Shown piece after piece: positions 1 to 16,000 of a DNA stretch of 20,335 nucleotides. How positions within the stretch are numbered: position 1 is the stretch's first letter; every line of letters starts with the position of its first letter. The notes below the pieces were generated by a model that did no database searches, was not told the origin of the DNA, and saw nothing but the letters and a program-made list of their open reading frames with translations. Made by a program: the position numbers and the translations under genes. The DNA is from a virus (lineage: Duplodnaviria; Heunggongvirae; Uroviricota; Caudoviricetes), in the IMG/VR virus record IMGVR_UViG_2698536518_000010, one strand, 5' to 3'.

Positions 1-1731
1 TTAGCCTGAGATATATTCATCCGCTGCGTTCTTGATTATTTTTGACCTAACATTTTTAATGTACGGTATTTTTTTCAGATCATCCCTCGAACAGTGAACG
101 ATATCACCCACTTTAGGATAGGTTTCTTTTATTCGGTCGCATATTGCGTTACTAATTGACAAGCAACTAACCGGATCATCAAGAAGTTGTCCTACAATTG
201 ACCTTGTTGGTACAGGTGTCCCACACTTAGGACAAAACTTCGCATCTCCAGGTAACTCAGCGGAACAAGTTTGACACTCATCAGCTGATTCTTTCAATTT
301 TTCTAAAAAACGCTCTAATTCAGAATCTGCTGCGCCAAATTCTTTATAATCAGCGAGAGATAATAGTGTTATTATCTCCCCGAACTTATTAGATACGAAT
401 GCTTTTTCAGTGAAAAGTAATGATAAATTAACCATGTAGCGCTGACCCGATTTTCGATTAGACATCTTCACGGACCCTTGCTTGGAAAGAACACCAGAAT
501 AACAAAGCAAATCTAGAGACAATCTAAGATTTGGAGAAATAACGGGAGGAAGAACAAAAAAAGCAGATTGGGTTTGAGTCTTTTTCTCTCTGTTATTTTT
601 CAATCTAAGCTCAGGGATAATACACTCCCTAAGAATATCAAGTCCAATGCGAACATGGTGAGAATACTTAGGTAATCGTTTTGAAAGCCCTAAATGATAA
701 GGTAATAATTCTTGATTGACATAATCCTGAGTGCAAGTTAAAAGATCTCTTTCAGTATAACCTTTCTCATATACTTTATTAAATAAATGGAGAAATGCTC
801 TAGGGTTTCCGGATGAAAGATGAATACATTGATCTAGCAAATCACCTTTAGCCAATATTCTCTTTTTTGCTGCTCCTTGTGTGACCCGTTTATCTAATAG
901 ATCACGATATAAACGTCGTGTTCGTTCCCGCCCAATATTTCCAGTTTCGTATCCTCCGAGGTTTATCATCATGGCATCTTGACCAACTTCAAAATTTTTA
1001 CCATACGATGTAATTGACGGATATACAGCCGCCTTAACTGCAATTTTACCGCCATGAAGCAATTTAAATATTTCGAAGAATATTTCCTGCTGTTCTGGTA
1101 TAAAGGTATGAGCAGCCTCATCAAATAAAAAAACAATTCTATTAAGTTGGTATTCTTGAATTATCTCCTTGATGATGTCATTTACATAACTTATATCATT
1201 AACCTTATCTAAAAAATCCTCTCCAATTTCATTCAACAATTTATCTGAAGAAGGATCTCTTGATAACCTTTGAAGCAGATGAATTTTAGATTGTAGAGCA
1301 TCTTTCATTCCAGTTATAGTTTTAATCCCAAAAATTCTTTGAAATGGATCACTGCTATTATTGTCACGAATGACATCTAAAAATATCAACTTTTCGTACA
1401 AAGCTTGTAGTAACTTAGCGCTTACCCATATCTGAAATGCATTTTTATTGTCAGCTTTAACCCCTTCCAGCAAAGTACTGGTTTTGAAATTAACATATAC
1501 CCCCACAATCTTTTTAACAGGAAAATCACTATCTAATTCAGCTTCTGCCGCTCTTAGAAGCATAGACTTTCCAATTCCTCTGGCACCCTGAATCAGATGA
1601 GAGCCCGCTATTTTTAGTTTTGCTACAACATCTTTTTCAAACTCACCAAGAACAGCCAGTTGTTTGACCTGTTTCAACTCAAGATCTTCGGTACGTGCTG
1701 CATGTAATAACTCAGTGTCTAACATAGACAT
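1..1731 (-). CDS. P-loop NTPase (AAA_16/STAND-like motifs) with C-terminal zinc ribbon and basic tail; downstream gene of a candidate defence cassette
   Basis: 576-aa ORF. Walker A GARGIGKS (codons at about 1564-1587), Walker B-like VFLFDEAAH, CxxC-x10-CxxC ribbon CQTCSAELPGDAKFCPKCG (about 220-276). TAA stop at 1-3. Start ATG overlaps the upstream stop (TAATG, 1729-1733). AT-rich codon usage. Family is by motif only. Confidence 0.75.
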   Translation of the reverse strand: MSMLDTELLHAARTEDLELKQVKQLAVLGEFEKDVVAKLKIAGSHLIQGARGIGKSMLLRAAEAELDSDFPVKKIVGVYVNFKTSTLLEGVKADNKNAFQIWVSAKLLQALYEKLIFLDVIRDNNSSDPFQRIFGIKTITGMKDALQSKIHLLQRLSRDPSSDKLLNEIGEDFLDKVNDISYVNDIIKEIIQEYQLNRIVFLFDEAAHTFIPEQQEIFFEIFKLLHGGKIAVKAAVYPSITSYGKNFEVGQDAMMINLGGYETGNIGRERTRRLYRDLLDKRVTQGAAKKRILAKGDLLDQCIHLSSGNPRAFLHLFNKVYEKGYTERDLLTCTQDYVNQELLPYHLGLSKRLPKYSHHVRIGLDILRECIIPELRLKNNREKKTQTQSAFFVLPPVISPNLRLSLDLLCYSGVLSKQGSVKMSNRKSGQRYMVNLSLLFTEKAFVSNKFGEIITLLSLADYKEFGAADSELERFLEKLKESADECQTCSAELPGDAKFCPKCGTPVPTRSIVGQLLDDPVSCLSISNAICDRIKETYPKVGDIVHCSRDDLKKIPYIKNVRSKIIKNAADEYISG

Positions 1732-2420
1732 TATAAAACTACCTCACTAGATTTAGGAAATGAAGATAGCACTTCTTTTCTTATCTTATGACGAACAATA
1801 TTGGAATTAATTATCATACCCAAAACAACCTCAGCCAGACCTATGAACCTCTCCCAATCTTCACTTTCAAAAGTGAACTTATTAGGCAAATCAGTTTCAA
1901 ATGAGGTTATTTTTCCATGAACGATATCACTTAATTGTCCATAAATTTTCTGTGCTCTTCTCATATCAATAACACATACTTTCCCTCCTATCTTCTCATT
2001 TTCTGTGAAGTAGTCTATATAGCCTTGATTTGTTATATGCTTCAACATATCACTGAAACTTAAGTCTTCATCATGATTTTTCCAAGAATATACAACATGA
2101 GGCATATCCCAAAGATAAATAGATGCGACACCTAGTTCCAAAACTCTCCTTAGAACAATATTAGCTGGTTTATCTATGGCACAGGCAGAAAGATATAAAG
2201 AAGATGACGTATCAGCAATAATCTCACTAAAAATTTTAATACAAACATCATGATGAACTGATGTTTTCTTTTTATTCAAAATTTCAGCAATCGTGTTAAG
2301 AGTGAAAATTGAGATAATTACTTTATCTAATTTTTTATCTTGTATGCCCTGCCATTCACGAAAGTTACTATTGAACTTATCGCTTAGCATATTAATTATC
2401 TCAGTAGGTGATTTGTTCAT
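1731..2420 (-). CDS. Hypothetical 229-aa protein, upstream partner of the NTPase (possible effector); no recognisable motif
   Basis: 229-aa ORF with stop overlapping the NTPase start by 1 nt (translational coupling). AT-rich. Preceded by AT-rich intergenic region 2421-2520 with AAGGGA upstream of the ATG. Confidence 0.65.
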   Translation of the reverse strand: MNKSPTEIINMLSDKFNSNFREWQGIQDKKLDKVIISIFTLNTIAEILNKKKTSVHHDVCIKIFSEIIADTSSSLYLSACAIDKPANIVLRRVLELGVASIYLWDMPHVVYSWKNHDEDLSFSDMLKHITNQGYIDYFTENEKIGGKVCVIDMRRAQKIYGQLSDIVHGKITSFETDLPNKFTFESEDWERFIGLAEVVLGMIINSNIVRHKIRKEVLSSFPKSSEVVL

Positions 2421-2807
2421 TTATTATGCATATCCCTTGTTTTTATCTGTCAATCAACAAGATAATAAGTATAATTTTATAATACAAGAAAATAAAAAGC
2501 CTTATTGATGTGTTTTATTGCTACTAAAGCGCGCAATGCTCTCCCCAGCAGGCCTGCCCGCTACACAGAGCAGTTTTCATGCAAGTGCATGATAAAAGCC
2601 TATCAGAATCGGCAGTTTTCAACATAAACGCCCACTAGCTACAGAGTGCAATTTTTCGTCATCGGCAATATCAACAACTAAACGCATAAATCAGACAAAC
2701 TGCTACCCGGCTCAATTTTGAGCCGTCTTTTAATCAACGGGTTATCGCCGCAGCATGTCCGGTTTCTTCCACTCGTAAGGCACGGCGTTCTCTCTATGCT
2801 GGTGGCG

Positions 2808-3002
2808 TCAACGGGCTGCCAGTATCGCCGCCGATCGGATGCGGATATGCAGCAAATCTCCTTCATTCGGAGCATGATCTTCTAGCTGCATTGCAGCAGC
2901 TACCACGTCCGCATAATCGGCAAATCTGGCTTTCTTTGGCAATTCGCTAATTCCAGCCACGCTGCGCACTATATCCAGCAAATCGGCTTCGGTGATGGTC
3001 AT
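2808..3002 (-). CDS. Hypothetical small protein (64 aa)
   Basis: ORF with AAGGTG Shine-Dalgarno 6 nt upstream of ATG at 3002. No recognisable domain. Overlapped out of frame by ORF 2678-2875, so it may be a remnant. Confidence 0.4.
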   Translation of the reverse strand: MTITEADLLDIVRSVAGISELPKKARFADYADVVAAAMQLEDHAPNEGDLLHIRIRSAAILAAR

Positions 3003-3033
3003 GGTTTACACCTTAGGAAATCTTAATATCGCA

Positions 3034-3241
3034 GGTTGACACACTTGACACTTTTTCGCGAAAAACCCTGGCATTTCTAAGCATGACAACTTGACACTTT
3101 TCGCGGTTTTCACGGGTTTCTGGCGTGGTAAATATGGCTCAAGGCCAGTAATGGCAGGGTTTACAGCGAGGTTGACACTTTTTCGTGTTCAGAGTGTAAA
3201 GTGCCAACCTGGCAAGCTGCTCAACTTGACACTTTTTGCGG
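3034..3241. repeat. Array of direct repeats with core TTGACACTTTT(T)CGCG (copies at 3034-3060 as a doublet, 3090-3106, 3170-3187, 3225-3241)
   Basis: Read directly: GGTTGACACA-CTTGACACTTTTTCGCG, CTTGACACTTTTCGCGG, GGTTGACACTTTTTCGTG, CTTGACACTTTTTGCGG in the intergenic space between the 3245-3787 and 2808-3002 genes. Confidence 0.7.
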
Positions 3242-3244
3242 CCG

Positions 3245-3769
3245 TTAATGACCTGTTTTTTCCCATGCAGCCAGGGCGTTTAGTCCGGCTTCGCTCCAGT
3301 TATCCAGCTCGTCAGGACAAGCATCAGCCACATAACAGACCTCACGTCGCAGCGTACCAATCACCAGTTCGGCATTCTGCCTGAGATCATATTGCTCGAA
3401 ATAAAACTCAGCATCGCCGTCATCCATCCAAATCCCGCCATCATCAAGAAATTGCACTTCCCAGTCTAATTCCCCGGCTGCATCCAGCACACGTTGCTGT
3501 ATGTCGTCGTCCGTTACTGGCGCAGGGATTTTACCGTCTCTGGCCTTAACTGCTTTCCAGAACTCGCCCCACGTCATTTCCAGCGTTCTTTCTGGCCACA
3601 TTTCAGAAACGGTGTCTTTCCCCTGTGCCGGTGGGCTGTTCCGCTGCTCTGTCGCCTCCACATCAATTTTTTTGCCAGACATGATCACTTCGCCTTTCTC
3701 GATCCAGTCGTAAACTGTCTGGCGGCTTACGCCTTTGTATTTGGCGTATTCGGCTTTACTCATCAACAT
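3245..3769 (-). CDS. HTH (excisionase/MerR-like HTH_17-type) DNA-binding protein with acidic C-terminal region
   Basis: ORF track gives 3245-3787. GAGGTGA Shine-Dalgarno precedes the internal ATG at 3769 (MLMSKAEYAKYKGVSRQTVYDWIEKGE). The VSRQTVYDWI motif resembles the AlpA/Xis-type HTH. Confidence 0.55.
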   Translation of the reverse strand: MLMSKAEYAKYKGVSRQTVYDWIEKGEVIMSGKKIDVEATEQRNSPPAQGKDTVSEMWPERTLEMTWGEFWKAVKARDGKIPAPVTDDDIQQRVLDAAGELDWEVQFLDDGGIWMDDGDAEFYFEQYDLRQNAELVIGTLRREVCYVADACPDELDNWSEAGLNALAAWEKTGH

Positions 3770-3868
3770 GTAACTCACCTCATGCATATACGATAAAAAA
3801 TAATTTCATGCGAAAAGGGAATGCGTTGTGGGTATGGAGGAAAGGGGCAATAACCGCCCCTTACTGAT

Positions 3869-4141
3869 TCAGTTGCGCCAGGATGGCTGGCTAAGCGTGG
3901 TTTTCATTACATCATTGACGACCTGCTTTACGATTTCTGTGTTGGCAGTCGTGCTTTCAACATCAACAAAGCCATAATCGCCAATTTCCACCGTCAGGGA
4001 TTCCAGTTTCTTCCCCAGTGCATCAGGCAACTCTCCACTGAACCGGTGCCGAAGATTTTCCACCAGCAAAGCCCTGAATGCCTCGCTGTTCTCTTTTTTC
4101 TGCCATAGCTGGCGTTTATCCACACTGATATTTAATTTCAC
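3869..4141 (-). CDS. Hypothetical protein (90 aa), GTG start
   Basis: ORF with GTG start overlapping the TGA of the upstream small frame (GTGA at 4138-4141). No recognisable domain. Confidence 0.45.
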   Translation of the reverse strand: MKLNISVDKRQLWQKKENSEAFRALLVENLRHRFSGELPDALGKKLESLTVEIGDYGFVDVESTTANTEIVKQVVNDVMKTTLSQPSWRN

Positions 4142-4305
4142 AGCCTCACCTCTTTAAGTGCCTTATCCATCAGTTGCCGGGCAATAACATGAATCGACGG
4201 TGCCACACCAAGCACAGATTTCTGACGCTTTTCGGCCTGGATACGTTACAGGGCTTCGATCTGCCCCCGGGAAAGTAAAACTGGCTTTACTCCGTGATTT
4301 TTCAT
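4138..4305 (-). pseudogene. Small frame (55 codons) interrupted by an in-frame TAA at codon 20 (plus-strand tta at 4246-4248)
   Basis: ATG at 4305-4303. Translation MKNHGVKPVLLSRGQIEAL-stop-RIQAEKRQKSVLGVAPSIHVIARQLMDKALKEVRL, then TGA overlapping the GTG of the 90-aa gene. Confidence 0.3.
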
Positions 4306-4544
4306 GATGATCCCTTCTGAATGACAATAATTGCAATAAATGAAACAAAAAGCATCAATAAACCAACCTTCGGCACTAAATGCTCTGATTTTTCTGCAAA
4401 GGTATGGTAGATGTTGCTGCATGCAAACATAAAGGAAATAGCAGAAGAAACAGCGGGGAGTGAAAAGGGGAAGTTTTTATAAATACACGATTGTCGCCTC
4501 ACTGCAGGTTAACAGCCACAAACCCCATGATAATAACTTGTTAA

Positions 4545-4868
4545 TTATTTCATCAGATTTTTCATTATTTGCGCGATTGAGTACACAAGCAAAAACTCGG
4601 CAGCCGCAAGAGTATAAAAAACATAGATTCGCTTAGCCCACCGACGATGAAAGAACTCCTCAGCATGACCGAATGTTCGAGATACAAGCCATGCACCTAC
4701 TGCACACAGAGCAGGTGCAATGAGCACAGTTATAAACCAGATTGTGATACCCATCCCATGCCTACTGATAATAGCCATTGGTATTGCAAAAATGAATGTT
4801 AGAGCAGCATTAGCTAATAGAATATCTTTTAAAGTATTTTCAATTAGTTTTTCTAGATTATCTTTCAT
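4545..4868 (-). CDS. Small hydrophobic membrane protein (107 aa, 2-3 predicted TM helices)
   Basis: ORF with hydrophobic stretches (LLANAALTFIFAIPMAII, ITIWFITVLIAPALCAVGAWLV). A G7 tract (4874-4880, minus strand) acts as Shine-Dalgarno 5 nt upstream of the ATG. Confidence 0.55.
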   Translation of the reverse strand: MKDNLEKLIENTLKDILLANAALTFIFAIPMAIISRHGMGITIWFITVLIAPALCAVGAWLVSRTFGHAEEFFHRRWAKRIYVFYTLAAAEFLLVYSIAQIMKNLMK

Positions 4869-4887
4869 CTAATCCCCCCCGTTGAAC

Positions 4888-4920
4888 ATTAATATATAAA
4901 AGCCCCTTACTAAGGGGCTT
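4888..4920 (-). terminator. Rho-independent terminator after the lipoprotein gene
   Basis: 8-bp stem AGCCCCTT/AAGGGGCT (4901-4908 and 4913-4920) with 4-nt loop, followed on the minus strand by a U/A-rich tract (TTATATATT). Confidence 0.5.
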
Positions 4921-4932
4921 TGCACGGATTGT

Positions 4933-6075
4933 TTAAAGGGAACTTTTTTTCGCCCCTTCAATTTCTGCCTGACAAATTTCGTCATTTGTAAATGAGTACT
5001 GCAGATAGACATATCCCTGAGTGGAATTGTTCGCTCTGGCCTCAATAGAGATAGTATCGATATTGTTTTTTAATGGTATTTCTTTTGTTCCCTTCCATGT
5101 GGCAGATAAGAAGCGTTCTTTTTTGTTTAGCCCCCTCATCCAGTCCTGAGGATCTTTCCAAATTGAACCAGCCAGCAAAAAGTCTGTAGTATCAGCCTTT
5201 CCATACAGAGAACTTAAAGAATTACTCAATTCTTCAAACTTGGATTTAAGAGCCAATCCATAGCTATCAGTATCAATATTTTTTCCTAAAGCCCGTATTT
5301 GACATAAACCAGCTTTCGGGGAGATCAGCAAACCATACATTTCAAAATCTGCGTTTTGCTTCGGTAATTTATCAGAAGTATACAGATTCACACTGTCTGG
5401 TAGTGGCTTGAGCTTAGCACCGATCATATCTTCGATGTTTTTCTGTGTAAGACCGGCTTCTAAGCCAAACGGACCATCCGCTGGCGGGAGTAAAGGAAGT
5501 TGCTCTTGGGAATTTTTGGCTGTTACTTCCGTTTCAGTACTGTTTTTTGCGTCATTAGCTTGTACTGATGCCAGCTTAACTTCAGCGAGGCCATACTTGG
5601 CTGTGAGGTACTTTTGCTGCAACATTGCCATGGTCTGCTCTTCAGTGGCAACAGTAGATAATTTTAGTACCTTTATCAGACCACCACTATACTGACGAGC
5701 ATCAGCTTTGGCTTCGTTGATTTTTGCATCTAAGCTGTCAATTTCAGTTTTAATTGAAGCCGCAAGCTCAGGATCAGGTTTTACTCCAGATACAACAACA
5801 TCAATTTTGGCACCTGATTCAATAGCATTAATACGCTGTTCCAAAAGCGCTTTATTAGTTCCTAATATTTCCAGTCTTGCTGTTGTCAGATTTTTTATCA
5901 ACCCACCAGAAAACTGCTGGTCAACTTCCTTAGCTGCTGATATTTCACCTTCCGTTTGCGACAGTTCAGCTTTAAGAGCCGCTACTTCCTGTTTCTGTTC
6001 TGGAGTTAACTCTTCTGGCCCACATCCGGTTAACATTACTATACCGACTAATGTTGCAATTAAAGTTTTATTCAT
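4933..6075 (-). CDS. Lipoprotein (380 aa) with internal repeat motif, function unknown
   Basis: N-terminal signal peptide with lipobox LTGC (MNKTLIATLVGIVMLTGC). Two copies of an xSGGLIKxL-containing segment. Coiled-coil-like composition. Confidence 0.8.
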   Translation of the reverse strand: MNKTLIATLVGIVMLTGCGPEELTPEQKQEVAALKAELSQTEGEISAAKEVDQQFSGGLIKNLTTARLEILGTNKALLEQRINAIESGAKIDVVVSGVKPDPELAASIKTEIDSLDAKINEAKADARQYSGGLIKVLKLSTVATEEQTMAMLQQKYLTAKYGLAEVKLASVQANDAKNSTETEVTAKNSQEQLPLLPPADGPFGLEAGLTQKNIEDMIGAKLKPLPDSVNLYTSDKLPKQNADFEMYGLLISPKAGLCQIRALGKNIDTDSYGLALKSKFEELSNSLSSLYGKADTTDFLLAGSIWKDPQDWMRGLNKKERFLSATWKGTKEIPLKNNIDTISIEARANNSTQGYVYLQYSFTNDEICQAEIEGAKKSSL

Positions 6076-6209
6076 ATCCCTATTCCAAATGAAAATATTC
6101 AGATTAATCTTATCAGGAACCCAGATGCAATTGAATATTCATCTGCTCAGCAACGTAGTAGATTTCCTCAGAAAGCATCAACAAAAAACCAAGAGAATCC
6201 CATCCTCTG

Positions 6210-6497
6210 TTACTGACTACAATTGTTCTTTTTTTGGTATTTCCTGAATGCCTCACCATTGGGCTGATGTAATCCCATCCCGGCATGTGCCCGGCTGATG
6301 GTTTCGCGCATCTCCCCGAAATTATCCTGCCTTGCTGGTGGGCATGCTGCCTTGTGGATACATTCCGCGCGACGTTTTGCCGCCTGTTCCCGTGCCTTGT
6401 CATCATTCGCCAGCATGATGACCTCAGCCCACCGCGCCGCCGCTCTCCGGTACAGACCACGCGCTTCCAGTGCTTCCGCTTTGCTGTCGTGAATCAT
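6210..6497 (-). CDS. PerC-family-like transcriptional regulator (95 aa)
   Basis: Motif KAEALEARGLYRRAAARWAEV resembles the conserved PerC/Pch core as I recall it. 4-nt overlap with the upstream ProQ-like gene. Confidence 0.5.
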   Translation of the reverse strand: MIHDSKAEALEARGLYRRAAARWAEVIMLANDDKAREQAAKRRAECIHKAACPPARQDNFGEMRETISRAHAGMGLHQPNGEAFRKYQKKNNCSQ

Positions 6498-7036
6498 GCG
6501 CCTATTGTCTCCTTTGCTGCCCGGCGCTGGCGTTTGCGCTTCTCATTCAGCGCCACCAGCCGCGTTTCTGCGTCCTGTTGTTCCTGTGGTGTCACCTCGC
6601 CGCACGGCTGGCCTTTCAGGTCGTAGCGTACCCCACCAGCCATTAAGGCGCGGTAATAGCGCGGACACTGCGCATAAGATGCCAGCGTCGCACGCAATGC
6701 CCCTGGCCCGAATGCCAGCCCCCTGACGGCGAGATCCTGCATCAGGTCGTCGAATATCCCCACCTTAAGCGGCTTCAGTGCTTCCCGGCTGAATAAGTCA
6801 GGCCACAACTCAGTGAGGCGGTTAACGCGCCTGCGGTTTTTGCGCTGGCGTTTGGTCATATGCCGCCACGGTGTCGCCCCTGTAGGCTTCTGCTGCGCTT
6901 TCTGGTTACCGGGCATCACTTTATGCGCCGATGTGGTTTTATCCTGCTCCTGTGCCGCCTGCGTCGTTTTCTGTGGCGTGCCGTAAATACCTTTTGGTTT
7001 TCTGTTAATGGTCAGCTTAGTCATGCTTTGCCCCAT
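6494..7036 (-). CDS. ProQ/FinO-domain RNA-binding protein
   Basis: Segment LTELWPDLFSREALKPLKVGIFDDLMQDL...YYRALMAGGVRYDLKGQPCGEVTPQEQQDAETRL aligns by eye with the E. coli ProQ N-terminal FinO-like domain (LAERFPHCF...PLKIGIFQDL...RVDLDGNPCGEL). Likely true start is ATG at 7024 (GGGG upstream). Confidence 0.8.
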   Translation of the reverse strand: MGQSMTKLTINRKPKGIYGTPQKTTQAAQEQDKTTSAHKVMPGNQKAQQKPTGATPWRHMTKRQRKNRRRVNRLTELWPDLFSREALKPLKVGIFDDLMQDLAVRGLAFGPGALRATLASYAQCPRYYRALMAGGVRYDLKGQPCGEVTPQEQQDAETRLVALNEKRKRQRRAAKETIGA

Positions 7037-7045
7037 CGTTACAAC

Positions 7046-7380
7046 TGTCTACCAACTGTCTACCGATATAATTGATTGATTTATTTAATGTTATTAACAC
7101 ATAACAAAAAAACAATCTGCAAACTGTCTACCAACGGTCTACCGCATTAATACATTGATAATTAATGATTTTTACTAAATGGTAGACAGTGTAGACAGTT
7201 AAAAGAGAAATTTAAAAAATACCCCCTTAACTATCTGTTTTTTATATACCCCCCGTGGTTTAGGAATATAGAAATAACTGTCTACCTCTCTACCACATTG
7301 AAAATATCTTTATAATTCAAAATATTAATTGGTAGATGGTTGGTAGAGGGTTAAGTGAATCTGTCTACCAACCGTCTACC
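7046..7380. repeat. Iteron-type origin-like region: at least 8 direct copies of (T/G/C)GTCTACC and 4 inverted copies (GGTAGA) separated by AT-rich spacers
   Basis: Direct octamers at 7046-7053, 7057-7064, 7125-7132, 7136-7143, 7279-7286, 7287-7294, 7362-7369, 7373-7380. Inverted copies at 7181-7188, 7190-7197, 7331-7336, 7342-7347. Lies immediately 3' of the primase/helicase gene. Confidence 0.75.
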
Positions 7381-7407
7381 TTTACGTTTCAGCTTATAAA
7401 TTTCGTA

Positions 7408-9213
7408 TTATGTTCTGTCGTTAATCCCTGTAGCTGCTGGCAACCAGCCATCAGCATCATCATCTAACAGAACATTTGTTATCACTCGCCCTTTATCCGG
7501 GCCTTTAGTGCATTTAGCCCGCTTATACTCCTTTCCGTATTCCGCCATAGCTCCTGGCATATCAGTACCAAAGCGTGTCAGTGATACTGGTTTTCCCAGG
7601 CCATGCGCTGACATATAGGCTAAATAAGCATGATACAGGTATCGCCTCGGGCTAAATGGCACTATTTCCGCATTGCCCACCATCATTCCTTCACATTTAA
7701 CCAACGACATCAGATAGCCGCAAAAGTCCACCAGTGAATCACCTTCGCGCTTTATCAACAGCGCTTCTTCTGATTTTTGCTGCTCATAAAGTAGTCTTTT
7801 AGCTTCGTCCTGGTCGGTAAATCGTGTTAGCAAATGGCGAATCACTACCGCCAGTTCGCCTTCTATCTTTTCCGCCAGCATGGGATCGCGTTCGTTCTCC
7901 GGTACGACCTCAGAGAAATTAAATATCACCCTACGACGCGAGATCCCCCCGCTTCGGTCACTGAATGACATGGCGTTATTGTTTACCGCAAGCACTACTG
8001 CCGGAATACGTGTGGAGTAGGGGGCTTTATGTTTCGGATCAATTGCCACCTTGTCGCCGCCAGTAATTGCCTTAATTCCTGCACCATCGCCAGCGTAGCG
8101 AGTCATATCCGGCATGATAATCAGCGAAAAGCCAACTACTAACGCGCGTTCCCTTGCGTCTTCCAGAGCCTTCATGCTTGCCGATACTGTGTTGGCCTTA
8201 CCCGCCAGCATGGTACAAATCTCCGCCATCACACTTTTACCGCTTCCGCCCGGCCCCGTTACCTCAAGGAATAACTGCCAGTCGTACCGGTTCGCCAGTA
8301 CCATGAATAATGCCGCCAGTACGCGATCCGCTTTACGAGCATTATCCGCCACCGAACGACGCAACCACTTCCAGAAATTCGGCGCATGTGTTGCCAGCGT
8401 TTCCCCCTCTTCTGGCGGGCTGAACGGTAATTCACTGGCATTTAACAACCAGTCATTTTTGTTGTGTTCCCGAAAATTTCCTGTCCTGATATCAAAAACA
8501 CCGTTACTGAACCCAATAAGATTTCTGTCCGCTCCCCCCATAACAGGTAGACTCAATTTCATTGTCTCTACGGCAAATTTAATGGCGTTTTGCGAATAAC
8601 TAATTTCGGCATCAATAAAAATCTTCGCCATAGACCGCTGGAGTTCCTTATCAGATACAGGCTCCCAAACAATTCCGTTGTAATGGTGAACTACATCAGA
8701 ATCATCATTTATCGCCAGTGCTCCTCCATAATGTTCAAGTAACACTTCCCCTCTCTGGCTGGCTCCCATCTGATTTAATGCAGGCTTGGGTAGACCACTA
8801 TTTTTTGTAGCTAATTTCATCACTGAAACTTCCCCGTGCTCAGCCTGTTCGCGGATCCGTTGCAGGTAGTCGCGCCAGTTCTCCGGTTCCTGGTCGGTGA
8901 TACCTTTGTATAATTTCGCCTCCTGTACGCCAGCCAGCGCCAGCTTTTCAGCGATAGTATTGATCTGGATTGGCTCTATCTCCCCCGCGATATAGACACG
9001 CGCAAAACGGCGTTTCTCGTCAATAATGCGGATATTCGCCAGGTCTGCCAGTTGCTTTGGCCCCAGGTAAACAGGAGGCACGTTATCGCCGTGTTTTCGT
9101 CCTTCACTTTCAATCCAGTGTTGAGCATGGGCGTAAGCATCCGTCCCGGCAAAAATGATTACCTCAGTGAATTTATCCTTCGGCTGATATTTTAGACTCG
9201 GTGCGTTTTTCAC
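7408..9213 (-). CDS. Replicative primase/helicase, P4 alpha-like (SF3 helicase P-loop GPGGSGKS)
   Basis: 601-aa ORF. Walker A VTGPGGSGKSV and Walker B-like LIIMPDM. Start overlaps upstream gene (ATGA). Followed by the iteron region. Confidence 0.85.
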   Translation of the reverse strand: MKNAPSLKYQPKDKFTEVIIFAGTDAYAHAQHWIESEGRKHGDNVPPVYLGPKQLADLANIRIIDEKRRFARVYIAGEIEPIQINTIAEKLALAGVQEAKLYKGITDQEPENWRDYLQRIREQAEHGEVSVMKLATKNSGLPKPALNQMGASQRGEVLLEHYGGALAINDDSDVVHHYNGIVWEPVSDKELQRSMAKIFIDAEISYSQNAIKFAVETMKLSLPVMGGADRNLIGFSNGVFDIRTGNFREHNKNDWLLNASELPFSPPEEGETLATHAPNFWKWLRRSVADNARKADRVLAALFMVLANRYDWQLFLEVTGPGGSGKSVMAEICTMLAGKANTVSASMKALEDARERALVVGFSLIIMPDMTRYAGDGAGIKAITGGDKVAIDPKHKAPYSTRIPAVVLAVNNNAMSFSDRSGGISRRRVIFNFSEVVPENERDPMLAEKIEGELAVVIRHLLTRFTDQDEAKRLLYEQQKSEEALLIKREGDSLVDFCGYLMSLVKCEGMMVGNAEIVPFSPRRYLYHAYLAYMSAHGLGKPVSLTRFGTDMPGAMAEYGKEYKRAKCTKGPDKGRVITNVLLDDDADGWLPAATGINDRT

Positions 9214-9500
9214 TTCTTACCTCCCGCAACCAACATTGCCCGGATTTTTTTAATATTCGTGGCTGCACGTCTCGCCACTGCCTGTTGTTTGTTTTCCACC
9301 AGAATAAAATCACGATCAAACTGACGGCGCGGCATTACGCAGTCATATTCGTAAGCCTCACGGCGGTAGGTGATATTGCCTGGCGTAACGTGACGAATAA
9401 CCACCCGTCCCCCGCGTCTGGTGTCCCGGGAAATATCACCGGGGCGGATTTCAGGCCGAGAGAGGCCGCTGGCAGTAAAGCCAGAATTTTTCTTTTTCAT
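9210..9500 (-). CDS. Hypothetical basic protein (96 aa) in the replication operon
   Basis: ORF whose stop overlaps the primase start. No recognisable domain. Confidence 0.5.
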   Translation of the reverse strand: MKKKNSGFTASGLSRPEIRPGDISRDTRRGGRVVIRHVTPGNITYRREAYEYDCVMPRRQFDRDFILVENKQQAVARRAATNIKKIRAMLVAGGKK

Positions 9501-9504
9501 GGTT

Positions 9505-9705
9505 TTATTTTCCTGTCAGCAGTTCCGGTTTTATTTCCGCACGAATACAAAGTTCAGAAAAAAATTCAGGAGAACCAACAATCTCATTACTTTTCAGTCG
9601 GCATTGTGATTTCACTTTCCCTTTATCCAGGTAAACCAGTACGCGTCCGGTGAAATCATCTGGCACATTAAGCACTACGGGTACATGCGCTTCATGATTA
9701 TGCAT
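9505..9705 (-). CDS. Hypothetical protein (66 aa), short paralogue of the 9924-10289 gene
   Basis: GGAGGA Shine-Dalgarno. N-terminus MHNH...DDFTGRVLV parallels MHNL...EKFTGQLLV of the larger gene. Confidence 0.5.
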   Translation of the reverse strand: MHNHEAHVPVVLNVPDDFTGRVLVYLDKGKVKSQCRLKSNEIVGSPEFFSELCIRAEIKPELLTGK

Positions 9706-9931
9706 GGCTTACATCCTCCGTGAATTTTCTTCTGTAACGCGTCTCTGCCACATATTCCGCATAGTCCGACGCAATACTAAGAATCATTTCACCCTCTGAC
9801 TTGTAGCCACTGGTATTGATAAGAAAATATGCAGCTTTCATCATGTCAGCAACGCTCAACAATGCGCCCGCTGCATCTTCCGGTGCGCCATCAAATTCCC
9901 GTTTCAGGGAATTAAAACGATCATCACGCAT
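9698..9931 (-). CDS. Hypothetical protein (77 aa)
   Basis: ORF overlapping neighbours by 8 nt at both ends (operon-style packing). Confidence 0.45.
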   Translation of the reverse strand: MRDDRFNSLKREFDGAPEDAAGALLSVADMMKAAYFLINTSGYKSEGEMILSIASDYAEYVAETRYRRKFTEDVSHA

Positions 9932-10289
9932 GTTTACCCCCCTGAATGACCTGATAACCGCAACTGGTCAGCAACTCGATAAATTCCGGCAGTGTGCCGA
10001 AACAGCAATCATCACGCAGCCGTTCGCGGGATACTTCAACGCCGTTTTCGTAGTGACTCACCATACGCCCGGTAAAATGCAGATCATCATCGTGATGGCT
10101 CGTTGACGGCTTAATCAGTCGCGCACGTTCCGCCAGTTCCAGCAATGCTTCAACGCTTCCGGCAATTGCACCATCCGGCAGGTGGTAATTACGCACTATG
10201 CGCCCGTTCTCCACATTGACCAGCAACTGCCCGGTAAATTTCTCGTCAAACTGAATGCTGTTAAGGTCAGAAATTGACAGGTTATGCAT
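9924..10289 (-). CDS. Hypothetical protein (121 aa from SD-supported ATG at 10289; ORF track start 10307)
   Basis: AGGAGGT Shine-Dalgarno 6 nt upstream of ATG at 10289. Paralogous N-terminus to the 9505-9705 product. Confidence 0.5.
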   Translation of the reverse strand: MHNLSISDLNSIQFDEKFTGQLLVNVENGRIVRNYHLPDGAIAGSVEALLELAERARLIKPSTSHHDDDLHFTGRMVSHYENGVEVSRERLRDDCCFGTLPEFIELLTSCGYQVIQGGKHA

Positions 10290-10506
10290 GGTGCACCTCC
10301 TGCACATCAGCCATGATAATTTTTCCGGCCTTATCCAGTGCCTGATCGGCTTTTAGCTGCACAAATGCTAAATAATGGGAGATGCATTCTGATTCTCTGG
10401 CTGCGTGTTTATGCGCCACACCAGCGATAGCAGAAATCTCAATAAGTGAATCCATCAGCGTTTTGATAGCGTCTACCGCTGCATCAGGCCATGTTGCATT
10501 ACACAT
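10282..10506 (-). CDS. Hypothetical protein (74 aa)
   Basis: ORF with ATGTGTAA start/stop overlap with the upstream 67-aa gene. Confidence 0.4.
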   Translation of the reverse strand: MCNATWPDAAVDAIKTLMDSLIEISAIAGVAHKHAARESECISHYLAFVQLKADQALDKAGKIIMADVQEVHHA

Positions 10507-10702
10507 GTTCCACCTCCTGGCGAATACGGGCTGCGAATACCATCACGCAGCCATCAGGAGATTGCTGGCGTGCTTCCTGTTCGCTGGTGGCCTCGATGTG
10601 AATTACGCGCGGTTGTGCCGTGCTCAGGGCGATAAAACGCCAGATGTATTTATTCAGGTTGTGCGAGTCCCGCCCTTGCGGGTGTGTGGTATGATTTCTC
10701 AT
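10499..10702 (-). CDS. Hypothetical protein (67 aa), first gene of the leftward operon
   Basis: C-terminal part of the 435-codon ORF-track frame. ATG at 10702 preceded by GAGGT Shine-Dalgarno. Lies just downstream of the operator cluster. Confidence 0.45.
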   Translation of the reverse strand: MRNHTTHPQGRDSHNLNKYIWRFIALSTAQPRVIHIEATSEQEARQQSPDGCVMVFAARIRQEVEHV

Positions 10703-10798
10703 AGCTACCTCGATACTCTTGCTATCGTTGGTGGTTAGACGCCCTGCATGTGTGCCACCACTGCGGGGCGTTGTCGTTTCTGCACCTTGCATCAACAA

Positions 10799-10853
10799 GG
10801 TGTTGAACACCAATTTAAGCCTAGGTGTTAAACACGTCAAGTGTTGAACACTT
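10799..10853. promoter_or_regulatory. Three copies of an 11-bp perfect palindrome GTGTT(G/A)AACAC (10800-10810, 10825-10835, 10841-10851); candidate operator cluster in a divergent promoter region
   Basis: Read directly. Third copy overlaps a TTGAAC -35-like hexamer with CATACT 17 bp downstream. Sits between the leftward operon and the rightward small RHH gene. Confidence 0.6.
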
Positions 10854-10901
10854 ATTTTTTTTCCTGCATACTGCATTTGTTTTTTGTAAGGGGTACACAA
10901 C

Positions 10902-11081
10902 ATGGCGACAAAAGCAGTAAACGCAAAATCACAAACAGTTGCGGCAAGGGTTCCGCATGAAGTTATGAACAATGTTGAGGCGGTAAAAATGCCTGGTGAA
11001 AGTACAGGGCAGTTTGTAACAGCAGCATTAAAGCGAGAAGTTGAATACCGCCAGCGCCGCAAGGCCAAAGAACAGGAGTAA
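10902..11081 (+). CDS. Ribbon-helix-helix (Arc/CopG-like) small DNA-binding protein, 59 aa (below ORF-track cutoff)
   Basis: ATG at 10902 with AAGGGG upstream. Translation MATKAVNAKSQTVAARVPHEVMNNVEAVKMPGESTGQFVTAALKREVEYRQRRKAKEQE fits a beta-strand/helix/helix pattern. Confidence 0.45.
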   Translation: MATKAVNAKSQTVAARVPHEVMNNVEAVKMPGESTGQFVTAALKREVEYRQRRKAKEQE

Positions 11082-11798
11082 CCATCACCAGCGCCGTGGT
11101 GTGAGGAACTACGGTGCATCGTTTTACAGGGCTGCGCCATGACCAACAAAGAATCAACCAATACACCATCACCGGCACGGAAAAGACAGCGCAGAAAGAT
11201 AGCGTACGAGCATGAGTCAAACAGATTCGCGCCCTGTGCGTTTATCCTTGAGAAATTCCTTAAAGAGTACAGGCGCACAAAAATGGGGTCGCATACCTGG
11301 AAAACATCGCGGCATGGCAATGTTAAAGAGCAGGAATAGCCCACCAGCAAGCCAGCATATTCACCATAATGACCCTCAGTTAAACATAGAGTCATTGGTG
11401 CAAAGCTGACACATTGCCCACCAGCCGCAAATCTGGCATTGTTGGCGATGCGTTCAAGTATGTAGCTTTCCCACTGGCGGCCCTCTGCGGTCGCCTTTGT
11501 TTTATCCAGAACGAAATCAGACATCAGATTGATCAGCACCTGGCGACCTGACAAAATCGCATCAGTCGCGCCACCAGCAAAATTTTTTGCTTTCCGGACA
11601 GTGTGACCAACGACATTTTGCAGCAAAATATTCTGCATTTCTGGCGTGCTGTAGTAACGGTGATCAGCGCCTTCACTCTGTGCGACCACAACGCTATAAT
11701 CTGCCTCGTAGACAGTAAGCAATATGGCGCAGTAGGCTATTCGTTCACAAAGGCGCTCCGGCAACGGGGCGCTTTCTCTTTTTGTAACGGTCAGAGCG

Positions 11799-12599
11799 TT
11801 ACACATGGCTGTTTTCCTCCATGCGACGGGCTAACCAACGCTGCGAAAGACGAATTAATTCAGCCTTCCGCTGGTGGTAGTCCTGGCCTAACTCAATCAG
11901 CGTGATATTGCTCTGCTCAAGGTAAGAAAGGTGCTCAAGCTGCAACGTGCTCATGTGGTCGCGTGGTTCGCCTGTAATGCCGTTCGCCAGTGCCCACTGT
12001 TTTGCAGTCATGCCACCCAGTACGATACGCGCCAGCATGTTCGCTTCCGTGGTGTAGTGGTGCTGGAGTGTGTTTTTACCCAGTTCAGCCCGGTACGCCT
12101 CCAGCGCGGCACACATTGGCTTAAAGTAGCTGGCAACTGTGATACGGGCTTTCAGTTCCCGGCGTAACGCTGCGGAACGAACAGGCGCAACCTTGTGTAG
12201 CTCCTCCTCGCATTTGATAAAGTACTGGCGAACGGCGCGGCCCTGTTCGGTACGTTCGACCATCGCCAGTTCTTTCGCCATGTTCACTGTGATGATGTAC
12301 TCAAGAGCGGTTTGCTGGCGAGATTTTGCGCTCACCGGATCGGGTCGGCTCAAATATTCAACAACCTCATAATCCACGCCTTCCGTGAACCCGTATTCTT
12401 CAATGCGCCCCTTGATCCACGAACGGAAAACGCGCCCTACACCTAACGCCTTATGTAACGCTCTGGCGCTAACAATAGTGGTTTCACTCCCGCCAATAAC
12501 GCCGGAAATAATCGGGATAATTTCGCCGAAATTTTGCAGATTCTGGTTTTCAGGCCGAACGAAGCCCCGCCCCTGTACGGGCGTTTTTGGAAATTTCAT
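11799..12599 (-). CDS. Phage antirepressor-like protein (ANT/KilAC-type motif)
   Basis: 266-aa ORF. Segment ITVNMAKELAMVERTEQGRAVRQYFI resembles the conserved antirepressor core as I recall it. Confidence 0.6.
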   Translation of the reverse strand: MKFPKTPVQGRGFVRPENQNLQNFGEIIPIISGVIGGSETTIVSARALHKALGVGRVFRSWIKGRIEEYGFTEGVDYEVVEYLSRPDPVSAKSRQQTALEYIITVNMAKELAMVERTEQGRAVRQYFIKCEEELHKVAPVRSAALRRELKARITVASYFKPMCAALEAYRAELGKNTLQHHYTTEANMLARIVLGGMTAKQWALANGITGEPRDHMSTLQLEHLSYLEQSNITLIELGQDYHQRKAELIRLSQRWLARRMEENSHV

Positions 12600-12676
12600 A
12601 AAAACTCCTGCTATCGAATTAAGTTACTTTTATTTGCTGGTGGATAGCTGGGGGAAATAGCCCCGTAGCCATTTAA

Positions 12677-12874
12677 TCAGGTAGCTGTTCCGCGTGATTC
12701 CGCAATACGCTGATTAATCCACTCGTCAATTTCACTCTCAACGAAAGCAATAGCTCGCGAGCCAATTTTAACTGATGCAGGAAATTTACCTTGCCCCATA
12801 AGGCGATAAATCCATGCCTTGCTATATCCAGTTCTACGCTGAACTTCTGTTAAACGAATAAGCGTATTTGACAT
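12677..12874 (-). CDS. alpA: AlpA/Vis-family transcriptional regulator / excisionase-like protein
   Basis: 65-aa ORF MSNTLIRLTEVQRRTGYSKAWIYRLMGQGKFPASVKIGSRAIAFVESEIDEWI, typical AlpA-type HTH. Located two genes from the integrase. Confidence 0.85.
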   Translation of the reverse strand: MSNTLIRLTEVQRRTGYSKAWIYRLMGQGKFPASVKIGSRAIAFVESEIDEWINQRIAESRGTAT

Positions 12875-12943
12875 ATATTTACCTCATAACGTCTACTCAA
12901 TTTGACGAGGTAATCCTGGCACAGAAATAACGAATATTTTCAT

Positions 12944-13086
12944 ACCCTCAGGCCTAATGGTTACCGGAAGGAAATTAACCCTAAGGGTGATGGTAATCGG
13001 GAGGAAATCTACCCTAAGGGTGATGGTAAAATTGACGGGGAAGATAAAAAAATACCCTCAGGGTAACAGTAAATCACCCTCAGGGT
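12944..13086. promoter_or_regulatory. Repeated palindrome ACCCT(A/C)AGGGT (12978-12988, 13011-13021, 13054-13064, 13076-13086, plus half-site near 12944-12952) upstream of alpA
   Basis: Read directly. First two copies are followed by GATGGTAA. Lies between the stop of the 267-aa gene and the alpA start. Confidence 0.55.
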
Positions 13087-13101
13087 ATGCGGTATGGTGC
13101 G

Positions 13102-13905
13102 TTAATCCGGCTTTGCGTTCTTTTGGCTGTTGTCTCGGTTAATAGGGCAGGCAGTCCTCTCTATGAGCGTTGCAAGTGCATTACTTGCCCCCCACTGCTT
13201 AAGCTCCCTGGTTATCGCTTCTTGATTTCCCCTAGTGGCAAAATCATTTTCTGGATCGTAATTGGCCCACTCTCTGTTTCTAATCTCAATAGCCTTAGCT
13301 AATGGGTCTTTATCCCAGTATTTATATAAGTGTATCGGGCGCTCTTGCTCTAACTGCTCTATCCTTGCCCTTAACTCTGCGTTTTCTTTTTCCAGCATTG
13401 CGATTTGGGATAATAAATCATCCTCTGTACGCAACTCTTTCTTTTCAATATCGCGTCCTTGTGCCTCGTCATTTTCAGAAGAGTTAGCGCCTTCCAGCTT
13501 CGTTAACGCGTCAAGGACATCGGGAAAAATTGCGAAAATTTCACCCCTTATAAATCCAATGTTCTCAAATTCGGGATCTTCCCAATAACCGGACACCAGA
13601 AAACCATTTTCATCCCTCTCACCAGGTAAACAACCACGTTTCCGAACCGCATTCAGATTTCTATAAAGAACATCATAATCAAATTCATCCCGATACGGGT
13701 TACAAAAAGATTCCAACAGCTTAAATTCATTTACTGTGTACAGGCGGATATGTTCTCCGCTTATTCTCCTGAGTATCCAAGTTATGACATCTGAAACATC
13801 ATAATCATCACCAGCGACCTTAAGCACGACCTCAAGAAATTCACGTAAAGAAATAAAATCTTTTTTGTATTCGTTTAATTCGGCATGAATATCAATCATA
13901 CGCAC
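13102..13905 (-). CDS. Hypothetical 267-aa protein with coiled-coil segment, between integrase and alpA
   Basis: ORF with heptad-like stretch LLSQIAMLEKENAELRARIEQLEQE. AT-richer than neighbours. No recognisable catalytic motif. Confidence 0.65.
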   Translation of the reverse strand: MRMIDIHAELNEYKKDFISLREFLEVVLKVAGDDYDVSDVITWILRRISGEHIRLYTVNEFKLLESFCNPYRDEFDYDVLYRNLNAVRKRGCLPGERDENGFLVSGYWEDPEFENIGFIRGEIFAIFPDVLDALTKLEGANSSENDEAQGRDIEKKELRTEDDLLSQIAMLEKENAELRARIEQLEQERPIHLYKYWDKDPLAKAIEIRNREWANYDPENDFATRGNQEAITRELKQWGASNALATLIERTACPINRDNSQKNAKPD

Positions 13906-14027
13906 ACCTCAGCGTCCTCTACTGTAGTGGCTGTACCAGTCCGTCGAGGTGTACGGATTTTCGGGAGCGACCCTAGACACAGCCTTTTCTTTCGTCGCTC
14001 AAAGTCTACTACTGTATACGCAACCAG

Positions 14028-15242
14028 TCATCCACATTTTCCGAACTTGCCATGCACCACGTTACCGCCATGTTCGAGCGAATCCATATAGTCGGCGTAC
14101 CACTGGAGCATCTCGCGCCGCCCGTCCAGATATTGCGCATGATTGTACGTGCCACGAATTGAGTTCTTATCAACGTGTGCAAGCTGCGTTTCTATCCACG
14201 CGGTGTTATAGCCCTGCTCATGTAAAATCGTGCTCATGGTGTGCCGGAATCCATGACCAGTAACCTTTCCGTTATAGCCGATGCGTTTAAATACTTGGTT
14301 TATGCTAGCCTCGCTCATTGTTTTCCTTGGATCATTACGGCCGGGAAACATAAGCGGATAATTACCAGTTAATTCTTTAATCTGCCCAATAAGAGAAAGA
14401 GCCTGCTTAGACAAAGGCACCACATGAGGGCGACGCATTTTCATCCGTGAAGCAGGTATCTCCCAGATAGCCTTGTTGAGATCGATTTCATCCCATAATG
14501 CACCGCGCAGTTCGCCAGTTCGCAAACCAGTGATAATCAGTAGACGAGCCGCCATAACAACCAATGCACTTCCTGAGTAACTGGACAATGCCTTGAAAAA
14601 ATCAGGCAATTCTTTGGCTGTGAGGAAAGGATAATGATTAGATTCATGGCCTTGCATCGCGCTAGTAAGATCTGGGGCAGGGTTATACTCTGCGCGACCA
14701 GTGACTATTGCATAGCGGAAAACTTCCCCGCACCGCTGCCTCACTTTTTTGGCTTTTTCTGTAGCACCGCGCCCCTCGATGCGTCGCAGCACATTCAGAA
14801 GTTCAAGTGGTTTGATTTCGGCGATTGGTTTTTTGCCAATGTAAGGGAACACATCTTTGTTGAAGGCTTCGAGGATATCTGAAGCATAACCAGCAGACCA
14901 TTTTTTTAATTTGCTGCTGTGCCACTCAAGGGCAATATCTTTGAAGGTATTGTTTAACTGCGTTTCCCGGGCAATCTTTTCCTCTCGTTTCGCTTCCATC
15001 GGATCGATACCCCCAGCGATACCCCTTTTAGCTTCTTCACGTTTTGCACGAGCATCAGCCAAGGTAACTTCAGGATACACACCTAGTGCTAACAGCTTCT
15101 CTTTACCAGCTACACGATATTTAAAGCGCCAGTATTTTCCTCCACTAGGTTTTACCAGGAGATACAGACCACCACCATCAGCCAGCTTGTAAGCCTTCTC
15201 TTTTGGCTTGGCAGTGTCTATTTGACGGGCATTGAGTTTCAC
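14028..15242 (-). CDS. int: Tyrosine recombinase, P4-type integrase
   Basis: 404-aa ORF with GTG start preceded by GGAGGT. Catalytic signature residues (RTGELR, HGFRHT, SIRGTYNHAQY). Adjacent to the tRNA 3' fragment. Confidence 0.9.
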   Translation of the reverse strand: MKLNARQIDTAKPKEKAYKLADGGGLYLLVKPSGGKYWRFKYRVAGKEKLLALGVYPEVTLADARAKREEAKRGIAGGIDPMEAKREEKIARETQLNNTFKDIALEWHSSKLKKWSAGYASDILEAFNKDVFPYIGKKPIAEIKPLELLNVLRRIEGRGATEKAKKVRQRCGEVFRYAIVTGRAEYNPAPDLTSAMQGHESNHYPFLTAKELPDFFKALSSYSGSALVVMAARLLIITGLRTGELRGALWDEIDLNKAIWEIPASRMKMRRPHVVPLSKQALSLIGQIKELTGNYPLMFPGRNDPRKTMSEASINQVFKRIGYNGKVTGHGFRHTMSTILHEQGYNTAWIETQLAHVDKNSIRGTYNHAQYLDGRREMLQWYADYMDSLEHGGNVVHGKFGKCG

Positions 15243-15408
15243 TTGGGGGTACCTCCACTAAACCGAACAGCAAATACCCCCAAAAGTCCCCCCAATTGAC
15301 TGTAGATTTTGGGGTACTTAAGTAGACGTCAAAAGACTAAAAGGGGCGATAACATGCGGATTATAAGAAGTTTTTAAATACTTGAGTAGACTTGGGGAGA
15401 CGTTAGAA

Positions 15409-15454
15409 TGGTGCCGATAATAGGAGTCGAACCTACGACCTTCGCATTACGAAT
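15409..15454 (-). tRNA. 3' fragment (about 46 nt, anticodon loop to CCA) of tRNA-Thr(CGU); att core repeat, not a complete tRNA
   Basis: Minus strand reads ATTCGTAATGCGAAGGTCGTAGGTTCGACTCCTATTATCGGCACCA. The 5' half (acceptor and D arms) is absent, since the upstream sequence cannot pair with the TATCGGC acceptor strand. Confidence 0.6.
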
Positions 15455-15852: not shown

Positions 15853-16000
15853 AACTCCCGCCAGCTCCACCAATCATGATTGGACGGTGTAAGGACAACA
15901 CCAACAAAAACAGGAAGTTAGCAGTCTCAGCAGGACACCGACCAGACGGTGAGGAGACAAAAAAGGATACGCAAAGGAGCCGCGGCTCCCGAGTGACACA

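Follow-up and report, generated by a model that had tools for sequence, protein, structure and literature searches.

One end of a viral DNA of 20,335 nucleotides (IMG/VR record IMGVR_UViG_2698536518_000010, Caudoviricetes; referred to here at its full length as the window, and identical to IMG/VR contig UViG_2698536535_000005) carries on its minus strand a compact pair of genes that may constitute a defence system. Judging from the sequence, we regard it as about an even call that window positions 1 to about 2592 are a self-contained, horizontally mobile two-gene anti-phage operon, and put it forward as a candidate because it combines a conserved switch protein and a constant helical partner with placement in a slot of known anti-phage systems. 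The cassette (1..2592) consists of an upstream non-coding stretch (2421..2592), a partner gene encoding 229 aa (1731..2420) and an ATPase gene (1..1731), the last a complete open reading frame for a protein of 576 aa with its ATG at 1729-1731 and its stop codon at 1-3; all cassette features described below are on the minus strand. The TAA stop of the partner gene overlaps the ATG start of the ATPase gene (TAATG). From N- to C-terminus the ATPase comprises an AAA+ core, a middle region, a zinc ribbon and a tail of the double helix-hairpin-helix type, (HhH)2. Most of the functional evidence comes from the partner gene and the hotspot context, both of which a preliminary description of this DNA had missed.

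As terminal cargo, the cassette fills a variable slot at the end (window 2600-3100) of an integrative element that resembles the phage-inducible chromosomal islands (PICIs). Its GC content is 33-37% against 45-50% for the element backbone, with the rise at about position 2500, and DNA homology (83%) to a P4-like locus of Kosakonia is confined to window 1-2592, a span that takes in 172 bp ahead of the partner start. This non-coding stretch travels with the cassette and presumably holds its promoter; a scan for consensus sigma-70 promoters and terminators gave results at chance level. An intrinsic terminator (AAAGCCCCAT-gtaa-ATGGGG-T9) begins 4 nt past the stop of the ATPase gene, immediately beyond window position 1 (L050 9735-9765), and after it a fragment of a tyrosine recombinase pseudogene is annotated in L001. 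Among 5426 complete E. coli genomes, four have the ATPase gene, annotated there merely as ‘zinc ribbon domain-containing protein’, and 167 have the piece of backbone that adjoins the slot.

Sibling elements (L046, L047, L048 and L049) were compared for what they hold at the same position. In O104:H4 2011C-3493 the slot contains PARIS (AriA, E = 5e-43; AriB, E = 4e-22), in ZF8-1 bSEFIR (PADLOC, E = 4e-113) together with a hypothetical gene, and in A41 a 662-aa protein with weak pAgo-associated matches. The slot of EC20 holds two genes of 259 and 275 aa, a pair with no Pfam or PADLOC assignment that is itself a defence candidate. Close relatives of the window cassette are found in P4-like satellites, the Kosakonia copy (94% identical) between psu and int and the Serratia copy (82% identical) at the equivalent position between Ogr_Delta and int, psu not having been called in the latter. 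The psu-int region of P4 is an anti-phage defence hotspot (Rousset et al., PMC9122126). The cassette and its close relatives are thus located in variable hotspots that hold validated defence systems, namely the P4 hotspot and the PICI-like slot.

A mobile setting could also mean that the cassette serves the element that carries it, the ATPase having a part in initiating replication, choosing target sites, partition or the control of transcription and the partner being its cofactor. The best structural matches of the ATPase include the replication initiators ORC/Cdc6 and DnaA and the transposition target selectors TnsC and MuB, it bears domains of DNA-binding type, and the cassette is found on satellites, on plasmids and beside recombinases: resolvase, transposase and group II intron genes adjoin the pair in Desulfobacter, and in C. 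butyricum it sits after a serine recombinase. However, the host elements already encode their own primase or replication and regulatory modules, PARIS and bSEFIR can replace the cassette at one slot, and the pair stands alone amid housekeeping genes in Vibrio and Paenibacillus, with no transposase or replicon. Since the backbone (window 3030-19784) occurs at 98% identity but with no cassette in 26 E. coli genomes, the cassette is not a core function of the element. Service to the element is accordingly an explanation that we consider unlikely.

The ATPase has many relatives. A word-indexed search yielded 418 homologues, the best 120 of which are nearly all 576-580 aa long, are 54-94% identical to it over the full length and come from Enterobacteria, Pseudomonas, Vibrio, Alcanivorax, Nitrospirae, Sulfuricurvum, Spirochaetes, Desulfobacter and Paenibacillus. 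When each species was represented by a single genome, a scan recovered 34 loci across at least 10 phyla plus one Methanophagales archaeon, the ATPases being 50-70% identical across phyla, and a hidden Markov model (HMM) search of 1.84 billion representatives returned 874 clusters at E ≤ 1e-3 and 124 at E ≤ 1e-30. Given these counts of homologues, loci and clusters, the domain combination that had been described as unusual is the constant form of a sizeable family and not a one-off, with an HhH tail that is universal and a ribbon that is clade-specific. Two metagenome-assembled copies (L027 and L034) are truncated or have in-frame stops and are apparently pseudogenes or assembly errors.

The second constant of the family is the partner gene, which tblastn places immediately upstream and in the same orientation at 33 of the 34 genome loci, separated from the ATPase gene by -16 to +22 nt in loci where both reading frames were mapped. 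The archaeal locus has an upstream open reading frame of 233 aa bearing the partner motifs. Much more distant homologues keep the arrangement: the partner is directly upstream on a C. butyricum megaplasmid (27% ATPase identity; partner HMM E = 6e-35) and on three distant viral contigs (23-28% ATPase identity; E = 1e-34, 3e-13 and 4e-17), with co-occurrence holding down to 23% identity of the ATPase. The protein itself is modelled by AlphaFold2 as all-helical with high confidence (predicted local distance difference test, pLDDT, of 92), and we consider it, with moderate confidence, to be HEPN-like; it may be an enzyme. It is a relative of DUF5677 (PF18928) rather than a clear member by its sequence, scoring 16.3 bits against a cutoff of 27.1 (E = 0.011); 19 of 32 members of the partner family touch DUF5677 at E ≤ 1, the best at 5.7e-6, and several have a precomputed assignment to it. 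Eight polar residues are invariant over 49 partner sequences, E66, D70, R91 and E95 (in LRRxLELG) and Y160, S164, H168 and G169 (YxxLSxxVHGK), and mark a candidate active or interaction site (1917..2225). A search of the PDB by sequence with the partner profile gave noise only.

Such an operon might equally suggest an addiction module of the toxin-antitoxin kind, unrelated to phage, in which the ATPase restrains a toxic partner, or the partner a toxic ATPase, and the carrier element is stabilised as a result. The two genes form a tight, translationally coupled operon, the HEPN-like fold of the partner is common in toxins, and one relative of the cassette adjoins ParDE and HipA. On the other hand, a 576-aa AAA+ protein built of several domains, with three accessory modules, would be an atypical antitoxin, and it is defence systems, not plain toxin-antitoxin pairs, that occupy the hotspot slots. 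An addiction module therefore seems quite improbable to us as the whole explanation, although it overlaps with an anti-phage role because toxin-antitoxin and abortive-infection functions are not mutually exclusive.

The larger protein is an AAA+ ATPase of the ORC/Cdc6-STAND-TnsC structural neighbourhood with intact catalytic motifs. Its AAA+ module spans residues about 30-340 (712..1644), and invariance of residues was judged throughout on an alignment of 30 homologues that are 54-94% identical. Both nucleotide-binding motifs are where the preliminary description had seen them: the Walker A motif GARGIGKS occupies residues 49-56 (1564..1587), with G49, R51, G52, G54, K55 and S56 invariant, and the Walker B-like hhhhDE further on is IVFLFDE at residues 199-205 (1117..1137), in a region where L202, F203, D204, E205, A206, A207 and H208 are invariant. 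A sensor-2-like lid arginine motif, GNPR (residues 308-311; 799..810), is invariant at G308, N309, P310 and R311 and recurs as SGNPR in distant representatives; it resembles the GDAR of Cdc6/Orc1, whose sensor-2 motif position we take it to occupy. A run of arginines (R268, R272 and R276) is likewise invariant in the homologues examined.

Only one Pfam family, PF24389 (ORC-CDC6-like), clears its threshold in the N-terminal half of the protein (51.7 bits against a gathering cutoff of 27, E = 7.8e-14). Residues 38-286 match model positions 28-309 of 571, a match confined to that half and leaving the middle region, the ribbon and the HhH domain outside. The AAA_16-like label proposed for the P-loop has to be replaced by this family, as AAA_16 stays below threshold (17.6 against 32.6 bits), and AAA_22, AAA_14 and nSTAND6 do likewise. 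All close homologues are precomputed as members of PF24389, under the NCBI names ‘zinc ribbon domain-containing protein’ and ‘ORC-CDC6 family AAA ATPase’. Membership says nothing about function, because we found no paper mentioning the family, and no well-characterised family with a non-defence role claims the ATPase.

An AlphaFold2 model built with 30 homologues has a mean pLDDT of 58 and is usable for residues about 30-340; residues 341-484 fall below 50 and the extreme C-terminus is poor as well. The model places a large helical insert (helices 84-195) after strand 2, between strands 75-80 and 198-203, and its fold matches ORC/Cdc6, TnsC and STAND-type switches. By its position the insert may correspond to the initiator-specific motif. 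The invariance of all the AAA+ motifs and the fold matches together give good support to a predicted role as an NTPase switch. That was one part of the earlier proposal of a switch coupled to a zinc-ribbon nucleic-acid sensor; the other part has fared less well, as set out below.

Between the AAA+ core and the C-terminal modules lies the middle region (residues 341-480; 292..711), the most basic part of the protein with a net charge of +8. A helix-wing pattern, LDLLCYSGVLSKQGSVK...GQRYMVNL, can be read there from the sequence and suggests a putative winged-helix-like module; given that residues 325-484 had no Pfam matches in 8 diverse members, we go no further than this suggestion. The zinc ribbon follows (residues 486-507; 211..276), with C486, C489, C500 and C503 as the predicted ligands of a metal site. 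The cysteine-containing stretch reported at about 220-276 of the DNA is CQTCSAELPGDAKFCPKCG, residues 486-504, and maps exactly there. It scores 27.8 bits on Zn_Ribbon_1 (PF13240) against a gathering cutoff of 25, its four cysteines are invariant in the 30 homologues, and a CxxC-x8-20-CxxC pattern arose in 9 of 20,000 shuffles of the ATPase, so that the ribbon assignment, and conservation of the cysteines within the clade of the ATPase, are borne out. AlphaFold2 models the region with four short strands. Searches of the PDB by sequence with the whole ATPase and with its profile found as their sole match this part of 9sfa chain A, a 386-aa ‘putative regulatory protein’ whose similarity is limited to the zinc ribbon, CPACSVEVQAGAKFCHECG (family profile, E = 5.7e-4). 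In L030 and L033, which belong to a distant clade, the second ligand is a histidine and the spacing is altered (CPNGH.../CPNKH...CPIC, with C-x3-H), giving a C-H-C-C rather than a Cys4 site.

A zinc ribbon is absent in P0248, P0250, P0253, P0256, P0263, the viral-contig copies L053 and L054, and the C. butyricum plasmid copy. These ribbon-less distant members retain the HhH tail, down to the C-terminal EY[IL]SG, and the partner gene, and for this reason we regard the ribbon as accessory and the (HhH)2 domain as the core C-terminal module. The ribbon is a clade-specific accessory insert between middle region and tail, by its sequence a predicted metal site; its coupling to the switch as a sensor is doubtful, and as the core sensor of the system it is ruled out, being missing from deep branches that keep everything else.

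The tail (residues 508-576; 4..210) is among the best-conserved parts of the ATPase, with the consensus ...LSISxxIxxRVxPxYPxVGDVIxAxREELMxIxYIKEVRSRIIKNAADEYISG; 20 diverse tails share E572 without exception and R562, I566 and G576 almost without exception. An HhH-like character had been guessed from the spacing of residues, and searches at the profile level support it. In all seven diverse tails searched the top Pfam matches were HHH_5, HHH_2, POLH-Rev1_HhH and RNA_pol_A_CTD, every one below threshold (E = 0.0015-0.19); the window tail alone reached 12.7 bits on HHH_5 against a cutoff of 27, and the distant member P0248 20.9 bits on RNA_pol_A_CTD against 23.8. A first tail profile matched the (HhH)2 domain of Hef (E = 0.007), the HhH domain of NAD ligase, and DisA. 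Once the profile had been widened with distant members, the top matches in the PDB were C-terminal domains of the RNA polymerase alpha subunit (alpha-CTD; E = 1.2e-4 and 3.3e-4, then dozens more), followed by DisA, Hef, the N-terminal domains of Rad51/Dmc1, and XPF. Aligned directly with the E. coli alpha-CTD by hhalign, the tail gave a probability of 83% and E = 9e-6 over 58 columns, at an identity of only about 20%. The tail is thus supported, at the level of profiles, as an alpha-CTD-like (HhH)2 domain with a conserved EYISG C-terminus.

These features suggest how an anti-phage operon of this kind might work. The ATPase would be the sensor and switch, its middle region, ribbon and (HhH)2 domain binding a nucleic-acid or nucleoprotein cue that arises during infection; nucleic-acid sensing through these C-terminal modules is plausible, if putative. 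On such a cue the ATPase might assemble in an ATP-dependent manner, as ORC/Cdc6, TnsC, MuB or STAND proteins do, and assembly would release or activate the HEPN-like partner, which could then damage RNA or another essential target and bring about abortive infection.

By analogy, the cassette would work most like the two-gene systems of an ATPase plus an effector, and like the combination of HEPN and ORC/Cdc6-type ATPase in BREX-related loci. PARIS (AriA plus AriB, PMC9122126) is similar in having two genes, for an ATPase and a small effector, and in its occurrence both at the P4 psu-int hotspot and in the same PICI-like slot, but AriA is an ABC/SMC-type ATPase and AriB a DUF4435/Toprim nuclease, and neither window protein matches them. 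The BREX-related DUF499/BrxC ATPases bear an N-terminal HEPN domain and so join HEPN to an ORC/Cdc6-type ATPase (PMC12839542). Whereas these are large fusions in multi-gene BREX-type loci with a methyltransferase and PglZ, the window cassette has two genes only, the HEPN-like partner followed by the ATPase, and no BREX components. In comparison with Avs and other STAND proteins the window ATPase is far smaller, is conserved and not diversifying, and lacks the C-terminal repeats or dedicated sensor and the fused effector by which they are recognised, its presumed effector being a separate gene. Identity to ORC/Cdc6, TnsC, MuB and the archaeal Walker ATPases (2qen and 2fna) is 10-14%. Relative to the ORC/Cdc6 group, the ATPase has a much larger insert (84-195) and carries a ribbon and an (HhH)2 domain beyond the expected place of the canonical C-terminal winged helix; unlike ORC/Cdc6 and TnsC, it is always partnered by a small HEPN-like protein and has no replication or transposition context. 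DS-41 (DefensePredictor; NCBIfam NF053860), a validated defence system of E. coli that extends to archaea, shows weak similarity to the N-terminal 100 residues in the P-loop region, and the ATPase, at 27 bits against a cutoff of 370, is no member. Nor is the window system one of those recently named from the P4 hotspot (Crouga, Bandua, Aernus, Toga, Reve and Hailong).

Some relatives depart from the usual layout. P0300, a metagenomic protein of 1274 aa, combines the ATPase core with TPR repeats and an N-terminal Vps62-like domain in one chain and has no HhH tail, a STAND-like arrangement of effector, sensor and NTPase inside the ATPase family. A Limimaricola plasmid (L045 3872-6427) has a 27%-identical ATPase with ribbon and HhH tail and without the upstream partner. 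This gene is followed by a 274-aa open reading frame with RHAVVH, a canonical-looking HEPN Rx4H motif, and ParDE and HipA adjoin; the 274-aa protein shows no relation to the partner profile by hhalign. Modular variation of this kind, through fusion to Vps62 and TPR modules or a swap of the partner, supports the logic of a conflict system.

Several observations weigh against an anti-phage role. The searchable literature contains no experimental evidence for defence by this system, nor a description of it. There is no relative among 50,697 GenBank phage records. PADLOC-DB v2 gives a best E of 0.009 for the ATPase and nothing for the partner, the weak N-terminal match to DS-41 is the only one among NCBIfam anti-phage models, and a scan of PHROGs with both proteins returned nothing usable. 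Several of the genomic contexts, moreover, are plain housekeeping neighbourhoods.

The tail raises a difficulty of its own. DNA contact by the alpha-CTD is determined in E. coli by R265, N268, G296, K298 and S299. In the hhalign alignment the equivalent of R265 is missing, the position being variable and occupied by alanine in the window protein; glycine is found at the G296 position only in distant members, and the nearly invariant R562 falls at the S299 position. As the R265 DNA-contact position is not conserved, the kinship is one of fold and the tail is not an RpoA orthologue. Nor is the tail basic, contrary to the preliminary description of a Lys/Arg-rich tail: its K+R fraction is 0.16 compared with 0.14 for the whole protein and its net charge is +2 (median 0, range -5 to +5, across 30 homologues), the basic part of the ATPase being the middle region at residues 341-480. 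With neither a basic character nor an equivalent of R265, DNA binding by the tail is not assured.

The neutrality of the tail would fit another idea, in which it is a decoy that mimics the alpha-CTD and traps phage proteins targeting it, such as late-gene activators or ADP-ribosyltransferases, so that capture rather than DNA binding triggers the ATPase and unleashes the partner. The alpha-CTD chains at the head of the PDB matches and the hhalign result are consistent with mimicry, as are the unusual conservation of the tail across phyla, including its invariant free C-terminus EYISG, and the presence of close homologues on P4-like satellites, whose helpers use Ogr/Delta activators that work through the alpha subunit. 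If this were true, sensing would operate by mimicry of a host transcription hub and not by recognition of a phage structure or nucleic acid. Yet identity to the alpha-CTD is low, generic (HhH)2 DNA-binding domains (Hef, DisA, XPF and NAD ligase) match as well, and the family extends to archaea and to phyla without P2 or P4; we think a decoy very unlikely.

For the partner, Foldseek against the PDB found nothing significant, the highest-probability matches being HEPN proteins, and the canonical HEPN Rx4-6H motif is absent, with no arginine 4-6 residues before H168. On both counts its action as an RNase or effector is conjecture. Conservation is also much higher in the ATPase than in the partner (identities of 50-70% and 26-49%; for example 68 and 49% in L007, 50 and 26% in L025, and 41 and 26% in L029), which is the opposite of the fast-evolving-sensor pattern of many defence systems. 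The ATPase might itself be the effector, loading on phage DNA and blocking replication or transcription, with the partner only a regulator or adaptor. The missing catalytic motif and the greater conservation of the ATPase would both agree with this, and ORC, TnsC and MuB work by coating or marking DNA. The eight polar residues of the partner, however, are invariant across deep divergence and suggest a catalytic or ligand site, and relatives of the ATPase fuse or swap other effector-like modules (Vps62 and the Rx4H protein). An ATPase acting as effector appears, on balance, decidedly improbable.

The remainder of the window belongs largely to the element that carries the candidate operon. Its backbone (3245-15242) encodes an HTH (helix-turn-helix) protein with a weak small-terminase-like PHROG match (3245-3787, minus strand), a D5-type primase (7408-9213, minus strand) and an integrase (14028-15242, minus strand), together with an AntA antirepressor, ProQ/FinO, PerC (annotated in L001), a 435-aa protein with a C-terminal phage-repressor-like domain, and small open reading frames. 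The element resembles Gram-negative PICIs such as EcCIMP1, which is located in the same yagU neighbourhood. A second defence locus adjoins the element just past the integrase (16101-18825), made up of an EcoRII-type restriction endonuclease with EcoRII-N and EcoRII-C domains and, convergent with it, a C-5 cytosine methyltransferase. The last part of the window (18500-20335) has a very low GC content (27-28%) and short open reading frames; in the matching region of EC20 the annotation gives a LEM-3-like GIY-YIG domain protein and, after it, remnants of prophage tail fibres.

If the cassette is indeed an anti-phage operon, it would represent a widespread immune module, with 874 representative clusters in at least 10 bacterial phyla and an archaeon, and both PF24389 and relatives of DUF5677 would gain a function. 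Its wiring, an ORC/Cdc6-type AAA+ switch with an alpha-CTD-like (HhH)2 domain acting together with a non-canonical HEPN-like, DUF5677-related protein, has not been described before, and its study would probe whether initiator-type AAA+ proteins can act as immune sensors on nucleic acid. Conservation of the sensor across phyla, together with the invariant free C-terminus EYISG, is unusual for a defence protein and could mean that the trigger is itself conserved and hard for phages to escape.

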